Origin: Candidatus Hermodarchaeota archaeon
GTDB taxonomy: Archaea > Asgardarchaeota > Thorarchaeia > Thorarchaeales > Thorarchaeaceae
Length of the DNA stretch: 64,000 nucleotides
Direction of reading: 5' to 3'
NCBI GenBank assembly: GCA_048885865.1
Contig: JBHLLF010000013.1
Location: 14,607-78,606 of the forward strand
The position numbers and the translations under genes were made by a program. The notes beneath the pieces are model-generated. The model saw nothing but the letters and a program-made list of their open reading frames with translations, did no database searches and was not told the DNA's origin. Shown here one piece after another: positions 18,534 through 27,481 of this stretch. The number at the start of each line of letters is the position of its first letter. Positions within the stretch are counted from its first letter, which is position 1.

Positions 18534-19373
18534 TTGTTGGAAATAAGAGAGATGCAGTCTTCCGATATCGACTTCGCGCTCAGTCTGACTGAGGAGGAGG
18601 GTTGGTCGAGCACTAGGAGTGACTTTGAAGAGCTCCGTCTCTTTGATCAGCATGGATGCTTCATTGCGGAAGAGGATGGCATCTCAATAGGTATGGCTTG
18701 TGCACTCTCTTATGGACCATTTGGAACTCTCGGGAATCTGATACTCGTGCGAGAGTATAGAGGAAAGGGCTATGGGATTAAACTGATGGAGCATGGAATG
18801 GAATATCTCAAAAGCAAGGGCGTCGGATTCACAATGCTTGATGCAGTACAGAAAGCGGTCCCGCTTTACGAAAGGCTAGGATTCAAGAAGGTTTGCCGCT
18901 CCCTTAGACTACGCGGTCGTGTCGAACCAGTTGTATCGGCCAGAGTTAGAACGCTTGAAGACAAGGATATGCTCAGGGTTCTTTCTATCGATCGTGAACA
19001 GTTTGGTGCGAATAGGTTTCTATTCCTGGGAAGTACCTTATCAGCAAATCCCAATCTTGGAAGATTGCTTGAAGTAGATGGTCAGATTGCAGGATTTTTG
19101 CTGGGAAGTAGGCGTCACGGATTTGTACGCCTTGCACCATGGGTTATGTGTAGTCACTTTGAATTAGCCAAATCCATTCTGAAGGACTTCGCAGTTCAAG
19201 TAGGAGGCGCGGAGATTAGAACAGGCGTTCTTGAAACAAGTAGAAAAGCTATAGCAGTCCTCAAGGAGTCAGGACTTTATCAAGAGAGCTTCTCATGGAG
19301 AATGGTCCACGGAAAGGACAGATTGGAATTCTCTGACGGCCTCTTCGCAATTGGCTCTCCTATGAGAGGCTAG
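18534..19373 (+). CDS. GNAT acetyltransferase with C-terminal YitH-like domain
   Basis: YRGKGYG, AVPLYERLGF. Confidence 0.85.
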   Translation: MLEIREMQSSDIDFALSLTEEEGWSSTRSDFEELRLFDQHGCFIAEEDGISIGMACALSYGPFGTLGNLILVREYRGKGYGIKLMEHGMEYLKSKGVGFTMLDAVQKAVPLYERLGFKKVCRSLRLRGRVEPVVSARVRTLEDKDMLRVLSIDREQFGANRFLFLGSTLSANPNLGRLLEVDGQIAGFLLGSRRHGFVRLAPWVMCSHFELAKSILKDFAVQVGGAEIRTGVLETSRKAIAVLKESGLYQESFSWRMVHGKDRLEFSDGLFAIGSPMRG

Positions 19374-20544
19374 TCCTTTTTCTGCGCCTCTGGCGTATCT
19401 GCTCAATTCTGCTTACGAAATCAATCCTTGCTATTCTCTCAGCCATTATTGGCGAGATTACGAGAAGCACAACAGAAAAGGACCATATCACCGATAAGTC
19501 TACCATGATGTGTGTATAGGTCCCCTGCACAAACATCTCTATTGCTGTGCGGTAAACATTGGAAAACGGGGCGTACTCGTTGAGCATTCCAAATCCCATT
19601 CCAACCAGTGATAGTGGGGCGATACCGCCGCCTACTATCCAATAGAATAGAGCGCCCAAAGCACAGAGTGGCACAACATAAACAGAATTTCTTGCCAGTG
19701 CTCCGATAATCACGCCCAGTCCTGCTGAGTATAGAGCAAGGGGTAGTGTCAGTGCAAAGAACGTCAGTACATCTCCCTGTGGCCAGAGTCCATAGAAACC
19801 CCATCCCATAAGCAGTACCGCTGGGACAGAGATATAGCTCAGAATGACTCCACTAAGCATCTTCCCCATGAAAATTGCATGAGCTGATTGATTGGACATC
19901 AATAGCTCATCCAGGGTGTCTTGTTCGAACTCATGCGTTGTTGCGGAGGCTGACAGAAATAGCCCGCCAAAAGAAACACCAAAGATTATGACAGTCCAAG
20001 CCATGTAGGCCAATCTTGGAGGAGTAAACTCGCTCAGTAACTCGACTTCGAAGTTGGCAACTGCTGCATCAGGCAGGTAAGTCTGGTAAAAGATGTCTAG
20101 TTTGCGTATCACAGGCATTCGCAGATTCTTTGTCATGTCCTCGTGTGCATTATTGACCTGAATGTGAATGCTGGTGGAAACATTGTTCATGATTGCTTGC
20201 TCGAACCCATCAGGAATTATAATGACAATGAGGATTTCACCGTTCTCAAACAGAACTTCCGCGGTTTCCGCATTCATTTCAATGAGCTTCAGGCTTGGCG
20301 GAATTGGATCGTGCTCTCCGAGTATCTGCACCAGTCCATTGGTATAAACGCCAGGATTCTGCTCCTCTATGACGAGAGCCGTTTCAACACCGGGGCCCGC
20401 ATAAACACCCCCCATGAGGAGCACAAAGGCAGAATAATAGAGAAGAGGAAACAAGACGACGAAGCCAAGCCGCCTTTTATTGCGGAGCCACACCTTCAGC
20501 TCCTTTATGACCCCGGCACGAAAGATTCTCAGGAAGCCGCTCAC
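19360..20544 (-). CDS. ABC-2 type exporter permease
   Basis: IIIPDGF extracellular domain, EFEQDTLDELL; six-TM layout. Confidence 0.9.
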   Translation of the reverse strand: MSGFLRIFRAGVIKELKVWLRNKRRLGFVVLFPLLYYSAFVLLMGGVYAGPGVETALVIEEQNPGVYTNGLVQILGEHDPIPPSLKLIEMNAETAEVLFENGEILIVIIIPDGFEQAIMNNVSTSIHIQVNNAHEDMTKNLRMPVIRKLDIFYQTYLPDAAVANFEVELLSEFTPPRLAYMAWTVIIFGVSFGGLFLSASATTHEFEQDTLDELLMSNQSAHAIFMGKMLSGVILSYISVPAVLLMGWGFYGLWPQGDVLTFFALTLPLALYSAGLGVIIGALARNSVYVVPLCALGALFYWIVGGGIAPLSLVGMGFGMLNEYAPFSNVYRTAIEMFVQGTYTHIMVDLSVIWSFSVVLLVISPIMAERIARIDFVSRIEQIRQRRRKRTSLS

Positions 20545-21674
20545 GCACGCTCAACCTCCCGTTTCATCAGTTGCGCGGCGACCATTGACAGCACAATCCA
20601 GACTGACAATAGGGCTACAAATCCAGGTAGTAGGCCAGATATCGTGTCTAGAAAGAAGACCCGAGTCCACATGCCGATGGAATGAGTCGTTGGTAGTAGC
20701 AAAGCGAGCGCTCTCAGCTCTGCTGGCATGAGGCCAATTGGGGCAAGGCCACCACCTGCTAAGAAGCCAAACACGGCAAAGAGGACCGAGAAAAGAATAG
20801 CCTGTTCCCTCTGTTTTGTACGGATGCCAATCAGTTCTCCTACAGGTGCCAATGCCAGAAGAGTGAGAAGCAAGATCAGTCCAAGCACAAACACATTTCC
20901 GACTGGTAGGGTGCCCGTACCCAACAAGAGTATAGGGATTGTGATGATCATTACTGCTAGAGAACGAGGAATTGCTGCAATGGTATGTCCAATAATTATG
21001 GACATTCTGCTGGCTGGCGAGTTCATTGTGTCATAAATGGCCTGTGTTTCGAAGTCAGCAGCGGTAGCCATTGCTTGACCTGCAACAGCGCAGACGATCA
21101 TGGACAGAATGATGCCTACTGCGTACATGTACGCGGTATTTGATGGGGTTTCTGTGTGATTCAGGGTTTCCTCTAGGGCAACTCGTGCATCTGACTGATT
21201 GAACTCTGGATACACCGCCAGCTGGTTGTAGAGAAGCACACCTGCTTCTATCCTATGGACATAGTTCTTCACGATGTCGTCATTTAGATTGACAATGTAA
21301 ATCACAATGGTGGCTTTGACTCCAGATGTGACATTGGCACCAAAACCTTCTGGTATGAGGATATAGGCTATCAGGCTGCCACTCCGAAACAGTTGTGATG
21401 CAGATTCTGAATCGTATCTTGTCATCTTGAACCAGGGGAAATCCGTTGTGGAAACCATGTTCTCTAGAATCTCAGCCATTTCATCAGCCTGAGATGATTG
21501 ATCCTCCACCACAAGACCGCAGACAAAAGACTCACCGCCCCCAACCTGCGCCCACATGATTGTATACACGAACGCCAATACAAACGGGACGATTAGACTT
21601 GGAGCAATGAAACGGGGATCACGCTTAGCCTGCTTAAGGTCCTTCTTTGCCACTGCAAGTATCTCACGTAGCAT
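20541..21674 (-). CDS. ABC-2 type exporter permease
   Basis: KKDLKQAKRD, LIPEGF, LPTTH; 4-bp overlap with the next gene. Confidence 0.9.
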   Translation of the reverse strand: MLREILAVAKKDLKQAKRDPRFIAPSLIVPFVLAFVYTIMWAQVGGGESFVCGLVVEDQSSQADEMAEILENMVSTTDFPWFKMTRYDSESASQLFRSGSLIAYILIPEGFGANVTSGVKATIVIYIVNLNDDIVKNYVHRIEAGVLLYNQLAVYPEFNQSDARVALEETLNHTETPSNTAYMYAVGIILSMIVCAVAGQAMATAADFETQAIYDTMNSPASRMSIIIGHTIAAIPRSLAVMIITIPILLLGTGTLPVGNVFVLGLILLLTLLALAPVGELIGIRTKQREQAILFSVLFAVFGFLAGGGLAPIGLMPAELRALALLLPTTHSIGMWTRVFFLDTISGLLPGFVALLSVWIVLSMVAAQLMKREVERA

Positions 21675-21676
21675 GC

Positions 21677-22651
21677 CTAGTCCCTCAGCGTTGACCCTGT
21701 GATAGTGAGGAAGACATCCCCCAGAGATGGTTCTCTTAGCGCAGCCTGTTTAACCTTCAGGCCTAGCTCTGTCAGTTTCTCAATGACGCGTGGAAGGTCA
21801 GCGTGACCAACCTGACTCTTAATCCATGCAGTCCTCGGACCGCTGTCTAGAGGCTTGCTTAGTTTCTCAGCTTCCATTCCCAGCTGCTCACCAAGCCAAG
21901 CTGCATCACTATCTGGTTCTAGACCTTCCAGCAAGACCTCAATCAGATAGTTGCCCACATGTTTGCGCTTCAGCTGATCAGGTGTCCCCTCTGCAACTAG
22001 TTTCCCATTGTCAATTACAATGACTCGGTCTGCTAGCGCTTCGGCCTCGTCCATATAGTTGGTGCAGAAGAGGACAGTTAGACCCTCATCACGCATCCTT
22101 CTGACCTGATTCCAAATCAGATTCCGACTGTGCACATCTACCCCAAGTGACATCTCATCGAGTATCAATAACTCTGAGTCATGAAGAATTGTACGAACAA
22201 GTGCAAGTCTGCGCTTCATGCCTCCCGAGTACGTCTTAATGCGGTCGTTCTTTCTATGAGTCAAACCGGCAAGATCAAGCATCTTGGCCACACGATCAGA
22301 CACCTCTTCCTTGGGAACGCCATAAAGGTCTGCATGATACTCTAGGGCTTCTTGAGCAGTAAGGTCCTGATAGAGAGATGTTTCTTGCGGCATGAAACCA
22401 ATACGCCTTCTGACTTCAGTAAGATTCGCTGAAACCTCGAATCCAGCAACCTTGATGCTACCTGATGTTGGACGTAAGATTCCCGTGATCATCTTCACGG
22501 TCGTAGATTTTCCTGCACCATTGGGGCCCAGTAGACCTACCACCTCTCCACGCTCGACTGAGAACGAGAGGCTATCCAGGGCTTTGGTATCTCCGCTGTA
22601 GACATGGGAGAGGTCCGAGATTTCTATCATCAGATCCAGACTAACCACCAT
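21677..22651 (-). CDS. ABC exporter ATP-binding subunit (DrrA-like)
   Basis: GPNGAGKST, YSGGMKRR, LILDE; the ORF-track start at 22837 overlaps the divergent gene, so the start is more likely 22651 or 22630. Confidence 0.92.
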   Translation of the reverse strand: MVVSLDLMIEISDLSHVYSGDTKALDSLSFSVERGEVVGLLGPNGAGKSTTVKMITGILRPTSGSIKVAGFEVSANLTEVRRRIGFMPQETSLYQDLTAQEALEYHADLYGVPKEEVSDRVAKMLDLAGLTHRKNDRIKTYSGGMKRRLALVRTILHDSELLILDEMSLGVDVHSRNLIWNQVRRMRDEGLTVLFCTNYMDEAEALADRVIVIDNGKLVAEGTPDQLKRKHVGNYLIEVLLEGLEPDSDAAWLGEQLGMEAEKLSKPLDSGPRTAWIKSQVGHADLPRVIEKLTELGLKVKQAALREPSLGDVFLTITGSTLRD

Positions 22652-22684
22652 TTGATACATGTAGTCACAACGATATGAAATTCG

Positions 22685-22703
22685 TGTCACCAGAGGAGTT
22701 ACA
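22685..22703. promoter_or_regulatory. Operator-like inverted repeat TGTCAC-N7-GTTACA
   Basis: Lies in the divergent intergenic region; near-identical copy at 23040-23058. Confidence 0.6.
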
Positions 22704-22750
22704 GCGAGTGATTCATATCTAGCGCCTGTAATCCTTCTCAGGATGTAAGA

Positions 22751-23032
22751 TTGAATCTGCAATTTCTCCTTCAGCCTAGAGTATGGGCGGTCCTGAAAGA
22801 ACTGAACTGGGGAGACCGGTTCGAAAGTGATCTTCAAGGGAAGATAGATCAGCTAACTGGAGGGCCCGATAACCTAGCGGAAATAAAGGACCGACTTCTT
22901 GAGATGGGTCTAATCTATCAATTGAAGGGAGGAAAGGGTAGTCCGTATCTTGCATTGACCTACAAAGGTCAGGAGATTGTAGGTCGTCTCATGGAAACTG
23001 AAGAGATTCTTGATTCAGACAATGAATCATAG
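22751..23032 (+). CDS. Small winged-helix protein
   Basis: RLLEMGLIYQ...LALTYKGQEIV wing/helix signature. Confidence 0.6.
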   Translation: MNLQFLLQPRVWAVLKELNWGDRFESDLQGKIDQLTGGPDNLAEIKDRLLEMGLIYQLKGGKGSPYLALTYKGQEIVGRLMETEEILDSDNES

Positions 23033-23039
23033 ATGCCAC

Positions 23040-23058
23040 TGTCACCTCAAAAGTGACA
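23040..23058. promoter_or_regulatory. Operator-like inverted repeat TGTCAC-N7-GTGACA
   Basis: Perfect 6-bp arms just upstream of the TrmB-family gene. Confidence 0.6.
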
Positions 23059-23091
23059 AGGGATTGAAAAGATTTTGATCTACTAGATTGC

Positions 23092-23931
23092 ATGGGTGCA
23101 ATGTTGTCAGGTGATGCAATCGTATCCGATATGATGAGTCTTGGCTTACATCTCAATGAAGCAAAGGCATACAAAGCTCTCGTCGCATTGGGGCAAGGAA
23201 CAGCTAGAAAGGTTGCGGACCTCTCAGGAGTCCCTCGGAGCAAGGTGTATGATGTCTTGTATTCCCTCGAAGATCGAGGCCTAGTTCGAAAGGTCTTGGG
23301 GAGTGACCCCACTGAGTTTAGAGCTTATCCTCCTAGAGAGGCAATTCCATTTCTTCTGGAGAAGATACAACAATCTGGTGTGGCCGTCCAAACTGCTCTA
23401 GAGAAGTTGGAGAATGAAAGAGAGCTGGAGAAAAGAGAGTATGTCTACACTGTAGAGGGTGAAGACCAAATCAAAATGGAATTGCGAGGGATAATTAATG
23501 GTGCCAAGAATGAAGTCTTCATAGCTACATTGGACCCCAAAGTCTTGAGCGCAGCACGACCTTCGCTAGCCAATGCAAAAAAACGAGGTGTTGACATAAA
23601 GCTGGTCACATCAAAATCATTCATGGATGAATGGCCCGAATTCGCACATTACGCGAGCATGATGGATGTCGGTGGGTTGAGTCCTCCAGATTTGGCTGAA
23701 CAGCTGAGCAAAGTAGTACAGGACAGCTCCATCCTTGAAGCATGGAATCCAACTCAAATGGGAATCATCATTGCTGATAACACTGATAGTATTGGAATGT
23801 TTGGAAGCCATCCGGACCAGGCTAAACCCTGGGCGCTAATAGTGAGGGTTCCTCTAATTGCAATTCTACAACGCCAAGTAATATCTGCAGTCTTATCACA
23901 AGTGCTTCGTGTTATCGAGAGCGGATGCTAG
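23092..23931 (+). CDS. TrmB-family transcriptional regulator
   Basis: LGLHLNEAKAY..L...TARKVADLSGVPRSKVYDVLYSLEDRGLV; PLD-like effector domain. Confidence 0.92.
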   Translation: MGAMLSGDAIVSDMMSLGLHLNEAKAYKALVALGQGTARKVADLSGVPRSKVYDVLYSLEDRGLVRKVLGSDPTEFRAYPPREAIPFLLEKIQQSGVAVQTALEKLENERELEKREYVYTVEGEDQIKMELRGIINGAKNEVFIATLDPKVLSAARPSLANAKKRGVDIKLVTSKSFMDEWPEFAHYASMMDVGGLSPPDLAEQLSKVVQDSSILEAWNPTQMGIIIADNTDSIGMFGSHPDQAKPWALIVRVPLIAILQRQVISAVLSQVLRVIESGC

Positions 23932-24023: not shown

Positions 24024-24833
24024 ATGAAAAAGCCCCTTCTGAAGTTCATAGTATGTCCAAAGTGCCACAAAGATCTCTTCATCACTGAAAATGAATCAGA
24101 TGACGAGATAGAAAGTACAACCTTAGCATGTGAAAAGGGGCACATCTGGAAGGTCGAGAATGGCATTCCATCGCTGGTATATCCAGCCATAACCAAGGAA
24201 GACGCAAAGTGGATTGCAGAGTATGACGAGATGGCTGAGAATTATGATGATATTGTCAAGCAGTACGACGATTGGCTTGGCATTGAACTAATGAAGGAGC
24301 GAGAGAAGCTTGCACAGTTCATTCCTAGTGAGGGGCCCGTCAAGATGCTTGATGTGAGCGTTGGAACTGCAGCCAATTTTGTAGCTCTGCATAATGCATT
24401 CAATGCCAAGGAGATGGGCCGCCTCAATCTCCATGGACTAGATCTATCACAGGGAATGCTCAATGTTTCGAGAAGGAAGATGATGGCAATTGGGCTTGAT
24501 GTAAGTCTTGTCCATGGAAGCGTCTTTAACATACCCTATAAGGACAAGTCTTTCGATATCGTCAACCATAGCGGCGGGATTAACACATTCTCTGATATTC
24601 CAAAAGCATTCGATGAGATGCTGAGAGTGGCAGCACCAGGGGGGATAGTGATTGTAAATGACGAGGGGCTTTCACCAGATATGAGGGAGTCTGAGAAGGG
24701 AAAAGCCATTATGAAATCAAACAGCCTCTTTGCGGCTAGACCCCCGCTCGAGCATATACCAGATAAGGCGAAAGATGTCGAGATCGACTATATCATGAAC
24801 GGGACATTCTATCAGATTGTCTTCAGGAAATGA
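24024..24833 (+). CDS. Trm112-like domain fused to a class I SAM methyltransferase
   Basis: IVCPKCH...LACEKGHIWKVENGIPSL; LDVSVGTA, GLDLSQGML, EMLRVAAPGG. Confidence 0.85.
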   Translation: MKKPLLKFIVCPKCHKDLFITENESDDEIESTTLACEKGHIWKVENGIPSLVYPAITKEDAKWIAEYDEMAENYDDIVKQYDDWLGIELMKEREKLAQFIPSEGPVKMLDVSVGTAANFVALHNAFNAKEMGRLNLHGLDLSQGMLNVSRRKMMAIGLDVSLVHGSVFNIPYKDKSFDIVNHSGGINTFSDIPKAFDEMLRVAAPGGIVIVNDEGLSPDMRESEKGKAIMKSNSLFAARPPLEHIPDKAKDVEIDYIMNGTFYQIVFRK

Positions 24834-24887
24834 GGGATATCTTGGAAAACGAGTATAGGAACGAAGCCGATGAAGTGAGTCAAGCAC

Positions 24888-25010
24888 TCAGGTGGCTTCC
24901 CACATGAGCACTTCCTCACGTGTCAGTCGACGAGTCTTGGCGCTTTCGTCGGGTGAACTGTACTTCTTTGGGCGGATTCGCTTGGTCCCATTCCTATGAG
25001 CCATGGTCAT
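24888..25010 (-). CDS. Small peptide sORF4, 40 aa (MTMAHRNGTKRIRPKKYSSPDESAKTRRLTREEVLMWEAT)
   Basis: ATG abuts the sORF3 stop (TAG ATG); hairpin TGAGT-N5-ACTCA overlaps the stop. Confidence 0.5.
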   Translation of the reverse strand: MTMAHRNGTKRIRPKKYSSPDESAKTRRLTREEVLMWEAT

Positions 25011-25100
25011 CTACCTGTACAGATATGCATGGGCGATAGCCCTTGTTGAGATCTTCTTTCGAAGCCTCTTCTTCTTGGTGATTCTCTCTGTTAGAGCCAT
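25011..25100 (-). CDS. Small basic peptide sORF3, 29 aa (MALTERITKKKRLRKKISTRAIAHAYLYR)
   Basis: AGGAGGT SD at the end of sORF2; C-terminus similar to sORF2. Confidence 0.65.
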   Translation of the reverse strand: MALTERITKKKRLRKKISTRAIAHAYLYR

Positions 25101-25107
25101 TTTTCGA

Positions 25108-25218
25108 TTACCTCCTATATGTGTAGGCAAATCCGATGGCTTGGGTCGACTTGACCTGTACCATCATCTTGTTCATCTTCACAGACTTGTTCTTCGTGTT
25201 CTTAGCCACAGCCAACAT
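25108..25218 (-). CDS. Small basic peptide sORF2, 36 aa (MLAVAKNTKNKSVKMNKMMVQVKSTQAIGFAYTYRR)
   Basis: GGAGGT SD at the end of sORF1; C-terminus similar to sORF3. Confidence 0.65.
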   Translation of the reverse strand: MLAVAKNTKNKSVKMNKMMVQVKSTQAIGFAYTYRR

Positions 25219-25221
25219 CTG

Positions 25222-25311
25222 TTACCTCCAGGCACAGTAGTCGTAGTATAGCGACTCATGGGTGTCAGGTCCGTGACCAGAGCACTCGTATTCAGTAGCA
25301 TCATGAGTCAT
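25222..25311 (-). CDS. Small acidic His/Cys/Tyr-rich peptide sORF1, 29 aa (MTHDATEYECSGHGPDTHESLYYDYCAWR)
   Basis: First ATG after the TATA box at 25346-25353; its stop overlaps the SD of sORF2. Confidence 0.5.
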   Translation of the reverse strand: MTHDATEYECSGHGPDTHESLYYDYCAWR

Positions 25312-25345
25312 TGGTTTAGCACCAAACTATTAGACACACCATTTC

Positions 25346-25369
25346 TATATAAACGTTTGGTCACCAAAC
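25346..25369 (-). promoter_or_regulatory. TATA box (TTTATATA) with adjacent palindrome GTTTGGT-C-ACCAAAC
   Basis: TATA at 25346-25353; perfect 7-bp inverted repeat at 25355-25369 over the BRE position; related site GTTTAGCACCAAAC at 25314-25327. Confidence 0.7.
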
Positions 25370-25564: not shown

Positions 25565-26317
25565 TTGACGACTGACGAGATTACTGATGACTTAGCAGGG
25601 ATTGAACCCCCTGAAGAAACTGGTAAGTTTCCAGAACCCATGAAAGAGATTGTTTTTGTAAATGATCCCGAGAAAGCTACAATACTTGATGAACAAGTAA
25701 GGTACATGATAATTCAGGTACTCAGGCGGGGCGTTGATGATACTTCTACTACGCGGGACGTTGACAGTACGACAGGCGAACGTATTATCCGTCAACGAGA
25801 TGTAAAGAGATATGCTATGTCAGTAGTAGAGATTGTCAAGTATTCTGAAACCTATGATGACATTGACAATATAACAAAGAATCAAGTCTACCATCACCTT
25901 CCTAAACTGATTGAGGGAGGTTATGTTGTCAAATTTGGCACCGTGACAACTGGAAAAAGAACGACGGACTACTATAGGCGCACGGCCAAAGGATTCGTCC
26001 TAACAGTTGGTGATTTTGCCGTTGATCAGAAGCTGATAAAGCAGAAGTCTAGCATCTATGTTGAAAAGTTCACGGAAATGTTTGATATTGATTTGACGGA
26101 GAAAGATAAGAAAGAACTCGCAGACCTCATGGTAGAGTCCATGAGAATGGAGCATCAGGGACGTGCTAAGATCGGTCAGCTGGTCAAGGGAGATGTTGCC
26201 GATAAGAAAGTGCTGAGCATGTATGAAGACCTAGTCAAGCTCTATGCCCTAGGCGATGATGAGTGGATTAAGATTCAGAAAAAGATGCGTGAAATCCTAC
26301 TCCCAAAAAGCCTGTAA
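25565..26317 (+). CDS. ArsR-like winged-helix transcriptional regulator
   Basis: GGTGA SD with TTG start; RYMIIQVL, MSVVEI, NQVYHHLPKLIEGGYV, YYRRTAK. Confidence 0.8.
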   Translation: MTTDEITDDLAGIEPPEETGKFPEPMKEIVFVNDPEKATILDEQVRYMIIQVLRRGVDDTSTTRDVDSTTGERIIRQRDVKRYAMSVVEIVKYSETYDDIDNITKNQVYHHLPKLIEGGYVVKFGTVTTGKRTTDYYRRTAKGFVLTVGDFAVDQKLIKQKSSIYVEKFTEMFDIDLTEKDKKELADLMVESMRMEHQGRAKIGQLVKGDVADKKVLSMYEDLVKLYALGDDEWIKIQKKMREILLPKSL

Positions 26318-26634: not shown

Positions 26635-27009
26635 TCAAAGTCTACGCATGAACTGGACAGCAGTCTTGGAGAGATCAATAAGTGTCAGCTCAGGAATAGA
26701 ATCATGCGTGGCCCAAGCGATTAGCCAAATGCCTATTTCAACGCGGGACATAAGCAAATGGCCTTGGTCTTGGTCGGCAGTTCCAATGTATGATTCTTGA
26801 TTTGATTTGATCCTGTTGTATTTGACTCCACCAATCTCTACACTCTCTCTTGCTGAAGCAGGCGCATCAGTGAGGGCTGCTGCGGCTGGTACACAGTCCC
26901 AGTTGCTTGTCTGCCAAATAATCTCGCCATTCTTCAGAATGGCAAATGCCTGAATTTTGGGATTGTGCGAGTAAAGCAGATTCCATTCGTTGTCAATAGT
27001 CATATCCAT
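26635..27009 (-). CDS. Asgard profilin-like protein (paralog 2)
   Basis: AFAILKNGEIIWQTSNWD, IGGVKY, GHLL; matches the Asgard profilin pattern and paralog 1. Confidence 0.75.
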   Translation of the reverse strand: MDMTIDNEWNLLYSHNPKIQAFAILKNGEIIWQTSNWDCVPAAAALTDAPASARESVEIGGVKYNRIKSNQESYIGTADQDQGHLLMSRVEIGIWLIAWATHDSIPELTLIDLSKTAVQFMRRL

Positions 27010-27100
27010 TTCACAGTCACCAGAATATCATCATGGCTCGTTAAGAAGTAGTCGTTAGAGGGACATGAGGGGGAAACCCTCAGTCCATCTAGGATTTTAG

Positions 27101-27481
27101 CTAGATTTTACCCTTTAGGGATTTTGCGGCTCGGTCTACGTCGACATAAATGCCGTCTGGAGCTGCTTCTGCTGCGGCCCAGGCAACCACAAACTTCTCA
27201 CCTTCAATCTTGGCTAGAACAAGGGTTCCATTCCCCGCCACATTTCGAGCAACTAGACTGTCCGGTGTGGTTCTTATTGTGGAGTACTTGATTTGATTCT
27301 GTGTAACTGAGGCAGCGCCAGAACTGACTGCTCTTCCAAGCTGAGCTGCGTCAGCCTGTAAATCCCAGTTATTACTCTGCCAGAGAACCTGTCCACTGGC
27401 TGTGATCACTCCAAATGCCTGAACCATGTTCCCACTACTATTATACGCCTGTGTGTATGCATCCATGACTGGATCTGACAT
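27101..27481 (-). CDS. Asgard profilin (paralog 1)
   Basis: AFGVITASGQVLWQSNNWD, QIKYSTIR, VARNVAGNGTL; 126 aa. Confidence 0.85.
   Translation of the reverse strand: MSDPVMDAYTQAYNSSGNMVQAFGVITASGQVLWQSNNWDLQADAAQLGRAVSSGAASVTQNQIKYSTIRTTPDSLVARNVAGNGTLVLAKIEGEKFVVAWAAAEAAPDGIYVDVDRAAKSLKGKI

Follow-up and report, generated by a model that had tools for sequence, protein, structure and literature searches.

A methyltransferase gene and a winged-helix gene of a Thorarchaeota genome are separated by 731 nt. What does this gap encode, and what might its products do? The gap lies within the 64,000-nt stretch of DNA that was analysed as a whole (the window), and its minus strand carries four ATG ORFs, sORF1 to sORF4, separated by 3, 7 and 0 nt (Table 1). 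Both sORF1 and sORF2 end in codons that spell GGAGGT, a Shine-Dalgarno (SD) word for the frame that follows. Random shuffling of the gap's bases, repeated 3000 times, produced a comparable four-ORF chain twice. The initial annotation had described this tiling with its coordinates, gaps and GGAGGT words, and had placed a box upstream of the first ATG and a hairpin overlapping the final stop codon. We found all of these in the sequence, with 34 nt separating the box, TTTATATA, from the ATG. Across many genera, orthologous loci keep the frames, the SD words and the peptide motif described below, and the tests that we ran support the proposal of a regulated, polycistronic and unannotated peptide system outside known families.

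Two of the start codons are likely to lie downstream of those first drawn. The sORF2 ATG reads AGG or AAG in three close relatives, whereas the TTG codon that follows it is kept and gives sORF2 the N-terminus typical of its family, so that the TTG is the likelier start and 35 aa the likelier length. For sORF4, only the second ATG is present in most homologues, which makes a 38-aa product likelier. Comparative analysis of codons and frames confirmed the four sORFs as real, selected protein-coding genes that had previously gone unannotated.

Table 1. Features of the peptide cassette and its immediate neighbours, in window coordinates
Feature	Position	Strand	Remarks
Methyltransferase, Trm112-like/class I SAM	24024..24833	+	convergent; neighbour in most, not all, orthologous loci
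Hairpin across sORF4 stop	24872..24914, core 24911-24884	-	two-sided changes exceed shuffled
sORF4	24888..25004	-	family B; 38 aa from second ATG, 40 aa from 25010
sORF4 Shine-Dalgarno word	25016-25013	-	AGGT, weaker
sORF3	25011..25100	-	family A short form, 29 aa, net +9
sORF3 Shine-Dalgarno word	25115-25110	-	GGAGGT, upstream of sORF3
sORF2	25108..25215	-	family A long form; 35 aa from TTG, 36 aa from ATG 25218; net +8
sORF2 Shine-Dalgarno word	25229-25224	-	GGAGGT, upstream of sORF2
sORF1	25222..25311	-	acidic (net -5) family A subtype, 29 aa, ESLYYDY motif form; HMM E 2e-9
Operator 2, putative	25314..25327	-	imperfect copy near expected start site/first start codon
TATA box	25346..25353	-	TTTATATA, kept in orthologues
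Operator 1, putative (promoter class P2)	25355..25369	-	perfect palindrome GTTTG-N5-CAAAC touching TATA box
Winged-helix regulator, ArsR-type	25565..26317	+	250 aa; divergent, single-copy, helical C-terminal domain, PH1932-like; 1ULY E 1e-9

Two peptide families under protein-level selection

sORF1, sORF2 and sORF3 are members of a single family, A (26-37 aa; charge from -6 to +11, median +5), in which a start of the form MAL[AT][KT]N is followed by a polar linker and then by STxAIxYAYxYRR. sORF4 belongs to a second family, B (29-40 aa, mostly 38), which has an LTxEEVLx[LW]EAT C-terminus and a median charge of -2; comparison of the A and B profiles detected no homology. The motif had been recognised in sORF2 and sORF3, rightly, but it is not limited to these two, as sORF1 also falls in family A. 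The acidity ascribed to sORF1 held, whereas its His/Cys richness is found only in close relatives, and since these residues are not kept beyond them, a metal-binding reading of sORF1 is unsupported.

Codon usage was analysed in genes taken from fetched loci, 141 of family A and 45 of family B. Key motif residues carried ~1.5-2.0 bits at codon positions 1 and 2 and ~0.2-0.3 bits at position 3, and at conserved motif residues every synonymous codon is in use, including switches between six-fold codons. Among six close orthologues, pN/pS was 0.21 for sORF1 as a whole, and over the last 13 codons it was 0.04, 0.63, 0.24 and 0.11 for sORF1 to sORF4, with freer N-parts (0.4-1.0). This dN/dS-type check, which had been called for at the outset, thus showed protein-level selection in the sORFs. 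As judged from these alignments, selection is focused on the last ~13 residues and on an N-terminal A-hydrophobic-x-K/T-N word; the linker between these conserved ends is polar, mostly Lys/Arg-rich, and varies freely.

These data bear on the idea that the conserved entity is an RNA, made of repeated GGAGG SD-like motifs and a hairpin, with the peptides as by-products. SD-like words do overlap the last codons in 131 of the 141 A genes, the terminal R or RR of A peptides is a by-product of that overlap, and the hairpin at the B end covaries. However, the free third positions, the six-fold codon switching and the conserved starts, lengths and frames are those of proteins, and Rfam has no match for the cassette. 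The codon data already largely exclude an RNA-only reading, which we regard as scarcely credible.

The A peptides are hydrophilic (GRAVY -0.7, best 15-aa window median 0.06), with a polar N-part of ~20 residues, and we found no membrane-spanning or signal segment in them. AlphaFold modelled one 36-mer as all-helix (pLDDT 78, pTM 0.31), which is uninformative, and the alternating I-x-Y-x-Y-x-Y register of family A would also suit a beta-strand. Three further readings of the sequences were rejected. A proteasome-gating HbYX function would call for a C-terminal hydrophobic-Tyr-X, present in only 15 of 141 A peptides; the C-termini are dictated by the overlapping SD. Selenocysteine at the hairpin TGA does not fit homologues, which have TAA or TAG there. 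Finally, apparent A-B 'fusions' of 69-90 aa in the protein library show Q at a TAG stop and come from short contigs, and we read them as gene-caller read-through.

A multicopy system found in one archaeal family

We searched for the motif across Asgard genomes, as had been suggested, and found family A confined to the host family: it was present in 70 of 76 Thorarchaeota genomes and in 0 of 224 other Asgard genomes searched. Family B was found in 46 of 59 host-family genomes and in none of the 191 other Asgard genomes searched. Genomes mostly had 5-13 matches to family A, so the scale of the system had been under-called in the initial annotation: what lies in the window is a single instance of a system that is spread through the family in many copies and under several classes of promoter. 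Searching 1.84 billion representatives with a profile returned 60 matches, 59 of them relevant; those inspected were the same peptides and one unrelated repeat protein. No family in Pfam, NCBIfam, PHROG, PDB or Atlas matched the A or B peptides, the A motif was absent from viral contigs under one strict exact pattern, no phage family matched, and we found no description of the peptide family in the literature. The family has been missed so far because its ORFs fall below gene-calling cut-offs.

Besides the cassette in the window, the same genome has units on contigs C18 (A-A-B), C22 (A-B), C1 and C2. Among 128 distinct units, the gene orders were A (51), AAB (38), AA (15), AAAB (10), B (10) and others (4); B is always last in its unit, where it stands singly and with a weaker SD word, and more than half of the units have no detected B. 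Whole promoter-to-hairpin units that are 90-100% identical occur at separate sites in four genomes (G024, G023, G077 and G094). Gene conversion was rejected as a general rule, as copies cluster by genome in some lineages and by locus in the window's genus, where the nearest neighbour lies in the same genome for 14 of 34 copies; recent block duplication explains the identical units equally well. No target-site duplications, terminal repeats or mobile-element association were seen at the units. In a sub-lineage of the window's genus (L015, L147, L149 and L155), the syntenic locus carries strongly diverged A and B genes, and there are few A or B copies elsewhere. The window locus is the ancestral, family-wide syntenic copy, and inheritance of the cassette is vertical and near-universal in the family.

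Promoters, candidate regulators and a wider regulon

The P2 palindrome with its TATA box occurs at 1-3 sites per genome in 41 of 86 family genomes, against 3 sites in total for the backward control. The divergent regulator stands beside 39 of the 98 cassette loci, and its model matches the Pyrococcus PH1932/PadR-type winged helix. From this adjacency we infer that the PH1932-like protein is a candidate binder of the P2 operators; a complex prediction for the regulator dimer with an A peptide scored 0.00, which has no bearing either way. On one side, the syntenic block holds two profilins, DUF167 and an OPT transporter, the latter an importer found in 17 of 21 syntenic loci. The other side is less constant and holds the methyltransferase, a TrmB-like gene and an ABC-2 exporter, whose ATPase family is present in 10 of 21 and whose permeases are present in 7 of 21 syntenic loci; the exporter is absent from dispersed copies of the cassette.

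Several features of this neighbourhood were seen in passing. Two tandem profilin-like genes (26635-27481 in the window) keep synteny with the regulator at 18 of the 21 loci, and at locus L002 both are apparently fused or read through in a 187-codon frame. A small winged-helix gene and a TrmB-like regulator (the latter at 23092-23931) lie in tandem at 22751-23931, divergent from the ABC-2 exporter operon (19360-22837), and we speculate that this pair might regulate the P1 and P3 promoters of the dispersed copies.

Dispersed units have promoters of other classes. In some, a GTCAC-N5-GTGAC palindrome with further half-sites lies upstream of a TATA box (P1), and in others there are TGGTCAC repeats (P3). 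P1 was found in 41 of 43 family genomes and in 0 of 157 other genomes searched. Its palindrome is like the TrmBL1 site TATCAC-N5-GTGATA, which activates if upstream of the TATA box (PMC4158304), a likeness of sequence only. P1 also precedes paralogues of one MFS transporter family. In each of the 6 genomes examined, it lies upstream of a gene of ~415 codons with a bactofilin domain as well. A single conserved locus has a series of P1, P2 and P3 modules with A genes upstream of an MFS gene. These shared promoters define a small regulon of peptides, MFS transporters and a bactofilin-like protein, and they therefore offer one of few handles on a regulated cell-state change in an uncultured lineage.

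Other observations concern single sites. The bactofilin-like protein of genome G000 (C6; L240:1091-2341) is a beta-helix with VGG repeats. Upstream of the C1 peptide unit of this genome (C1:186452; L109:953-1000) is a fourth promoter type, TTCCAC ... TATA ... GTGGAA, and at the same unit a degenerate P1 on the opposite strand precedes a PCI-like winged-helix membrane protein. In G156, a genome of another Asgard family in which no peptides were detected, a P1-like palindrome array lies directly upstream of the same MFS family (C213; L183). At G047 C1:574025 (L221), a P1-driven A gene lies directly upstream of an S41 (tail-specific) peptidase gene. Lastly, a strongly folding stretch (z -6.2) precedes tandem MFS genes at G000 C2:99345-99730 (L108:846-1230; L186-L189). 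It contains a small ORF from a Cys-containing family as well as a conserved CTCCTATCTCCG word with a long hairpin after it, and no Rfam match was found for the stretch; the word and hairpin are a possible attenuator or anti-SD element. The idea of a 385-nt structured RNA under P2 at this site is not secure, because the stretch holds a palindromic P3 promoter, an ORF of ~75 codons and a hairpin before the MFS genes.

Expression signatures and possible roles of the peptides

The last codons of sORF4 double as the terminal hairpin, and a T-rich run follows in most homologues. In the hairpin alignment 77% of cells were paired, with 31 two-sided changes against 15.6 in shuffled alignments (0 of 500 reached it), a figure that is inflated by related sequences. 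The hairpin is probably the 3′ end of the transcript or a terminator. The cassette would form a self-contained transcription unit, with an operator-TATA-operator promoter, four translationally chained ORFs and a terminal hairpin. Compared with flanking genes, A genes have TAC, AAC, ATC and AAG in excess (the rows compared are related, which makes the p-values look too strong) and a lower four-fold GC (0.36 vs 0.41), and no high-expression codon bias was seen in B genes. Since this NNC/AAG preference is restricted to A genes, A looks highly expressed and B does not; codon bias and gene dosage together suggest that A peptides are abundant in the cell. Two sediment metatranscriptome libraries, one of them probably DNA, each had one ~155-nt contig over 25145-25313 (~97% alike) and nothing else on 2.5 kb, and these contigs are uninformative on strand, level or transcription.

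Do the peptides act in cis? As leader or arrest peptides, they would stall ribosomes near the stop codon and so control downstream genes such as MFS, in keeping with the near-fixed distance from the family A motif to the stop codon, the SD overlap noted above and a co-oriented large gene within 250 nt of 21 of 68 A-ending units. The window cassette and 55 of 60 B-ending ones, however, terminate with a hairpin and are not followed by a large gene in the same orientation (the other 5 of 60 are), which leaves most B-ending units without a gene that they could control in cis. Both the amplification of the genes and their high-expression codons indicate a product that acts in trans, and we judge a leader role quite improbable.

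The imbalance between A and B also bears on a chromosomal module of the toxin-antitoxin kind, with basic A as toxin and acidic B neutralising it. The opposite median charges, the last position of B in every unit and the duplication of units as blocks would suit such a pair. Yet A is both the more numerous and the more highly expressed partner, which inverts the stoichiometry usual for such modules; more than half of the units are without a detected B, and the signs of mobility sought at the units were not seen. We therefore consider this very improbable.

A role as precursor peptides had also been raised. The peptides could be RiPP precursors matured in trans, for instance by radical SAM cross-linking of Tyr, and multiplied for yield, as multiple pqqA copies are. 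The conserved N-terminal word and Tyr-rich C-terminal core would fit this, a methyltransferase adjoins most syntenic loci, and the genome encodes a PqqD(RRE)-radical SAM-SPASM enzyme that is an orphan, no precursor lying next to it (G000 C2:33752-35170, minus strand; L264:5753-7171). Against this, there is no maturase at the 98 cassette loci, and the Tyr positions of family A tolerate H, F, R or T. With the query used, the orphan enzyme was not found in the A-rich genera g7 (0/5) and g25 (0/2, single-contig G047 included); it is present in many Asgard genomes without A, and its gene has none of the P1, P2 or P3 sites scanned. YcaO was absent in the 5 genomes searched. Maturases are thus neither clustered nor strictly co-distributed with A, and a role as dedicated RiPP precursors is disfavoured and, in our estimate, improbable. 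The orphan enzyme itself is conserved in many Thorarchaeota and in other Asgard families.

An intracellular effector or an exported peptide?

As our leading explanation, held with somewhat less than even confidence, we propose that A peptides are intracellular effectors made in bulk, which act stoichiometrically by docking a helix on one conserved target as part of a stress or cell-shape programme, with B as a minor partner. A switch of the divergent PH1932-like regulator at this locus, or of P1/P3 regulators elsewhere, would lead to bulk A peptide inside the cell. The short C-terminal helix would then dock on a single conserved and abundant target through an S..A...A face flanked by Tyr, and the basic part might add an electrostatic grip on nucleic acid or an anionic membrane. 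The nucleoid or the ribosome seems a somewhat likelier target than a bactofilin-membrane scaffold, and B, made in smaller amount, may be a partner or modulator; within such a programme, the net role would resemble that of SASPs or hibernation factors. The codon bias, the hydrophilic peptides, the few downstream genes, the lack of a nearby maturase and the vertical, near-universal inheritance favour a core function exerted in trans and in bulk. That basic charge is not universal, as in the acidic sORF1, weakens a pure nucleic-acid-binding role.

Export is the main competing account. Here A would leave the cell through the co-regulated MFS or the ABC-2 exporter, B would be a helper or immunity protein, and the peptides would serve as antimicrobials or as a density signal sensed via OPT and the regulator. 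The layout is like that of multipeptide bacteriocin loci, with tandem cationic peptides of 26-37 aa, a divergent regulator and inverted repeats (10.64898/2026.09.04.749385). A genes precede a Thorarchaeota-type MFS at 14 loci and an MFS_3-type pump at others, MFS paralogues lie directly under P1, the syntenic block has both an exporter and an importer, and bulk production is compatible with export. MFS co-regulation, A–MFS co-orientation (14 of 98 loci) and the second MFS family found after some cassettes are as compatible with export as with an intracellular role. However, the hydrophilic peptides with their polar N-part, the lack of phage or viral matches and an inheritance that is conserved rather than patchy or diversifying speak against it. 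B is the sole immunity candidate, and many A units are without it. The MFS family is also present in 19 of 19 genomes of another Asgard family in which neither A nor B was found; no peptides were found upstream of MFS there, several of the regions being mis-anchored. The regulator is single-copy and has no TPR fold as in RRNPP receptors, and the transporter neighbourhood may be mere conserved gene order. On balance we consider export rather unlikely.

On a broader scale, we think it only slightly short of an even call that these loci represent a lineage-wide, multi-input programme which chiefly yields micropeptides that carry the motif and are amplified in dosage, induced together with a bactofilin-like filament and dedicated transporters. 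It would be either differentiation or dormancy machinery of a kind not recognised before or the first Asgard peptide signalling or antagonism. No prokaryotes are closer to eukaryotes than Asgard archaea, which, to our knowledge, are known almost solely through automatically annotated genomes. A gene family in more than 90% of one family's genomes, in up to 13 copies, regulated and probably highly expressed, is of note in that setting, and the peptides are short enough for synthesis, so that their function is testable without culture.

Comparison with known systems

In layout, the closest known systems are Firmicutes operons for leaderless multipeptide bacteriocins, such as aureocin A70, garvicin KS and the cereucins (10.64898/2026.09.04.749385). 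As in these, three or four tandem, related, cationic leaderless peptides of ~30-35 aa share one unit, with an HTH regulator nearby, promoter inverted repeats and a transporter in the wider system. The Thorarchaeota peptides differ in having no sequence similarity found to bacteriocins and in being hydrophilic, and their cassette is chromosomal, vertical, family-wide and multicopy. The linked transporter is an MFS, connected through promoters that it shares with the peptides, in place of a dedicated ABC exporter unit. Of the parts of a bacteriocin cluster, the regulator is present and the ABC-2 exporter accompanies 7-10 of 21 syntenic loci; no immunity gene was identified.

SASP, the Sul7d family and hibernation factors are multicopy, small, basic binders of nucleic acid or ribosomes. 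Family A is like SASP-type proteins in its scattered short paralogues, strong SD, terminal hairpin, high-expression signature, regulated promoters and basic charge. It is unlike them in being about half as long, polycistronic with family B and in having acidic members. Searches for homology to SASP, Sul7d, histones and small ribosomal proteins gave only matches with E>1, to the N-termini of eS1 and Pop7, and we know of no sporulation in Thorarchaeota.

Rgg/SHP, PlcR/PapR and PSM-PmtR are systems that combine a peptide gene with an HTH regulator. They share with the cassette a small peptide gene divergent from the regulator, a Lys-rich N-part, a conserved C-part and an exporter and oligopeptide importer in the neighbourhood. 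Unlike in RRNPP systems, the regulator here is ArsR/PH1932-like without a TPR domain and is single-copy against 5-13 peptide genes, and in contrast to Rgg/SHP and PlcR/PapR the mature part is conserved family-wide and not strain-variable. Leader peptides of the TnaC, SpeFL or ErmCL type have a co-oriented gene directly downstream, and the window cassette has none. The insect tarsal-less/pri gene gives a short transcript with several motif-sharing micropeptides that act in trans; it is eukaryotic and unrelated in sequence, and the analogy is one of layout only. The peptide family and the layout of the system are new, and their function may yet be of a known kind.
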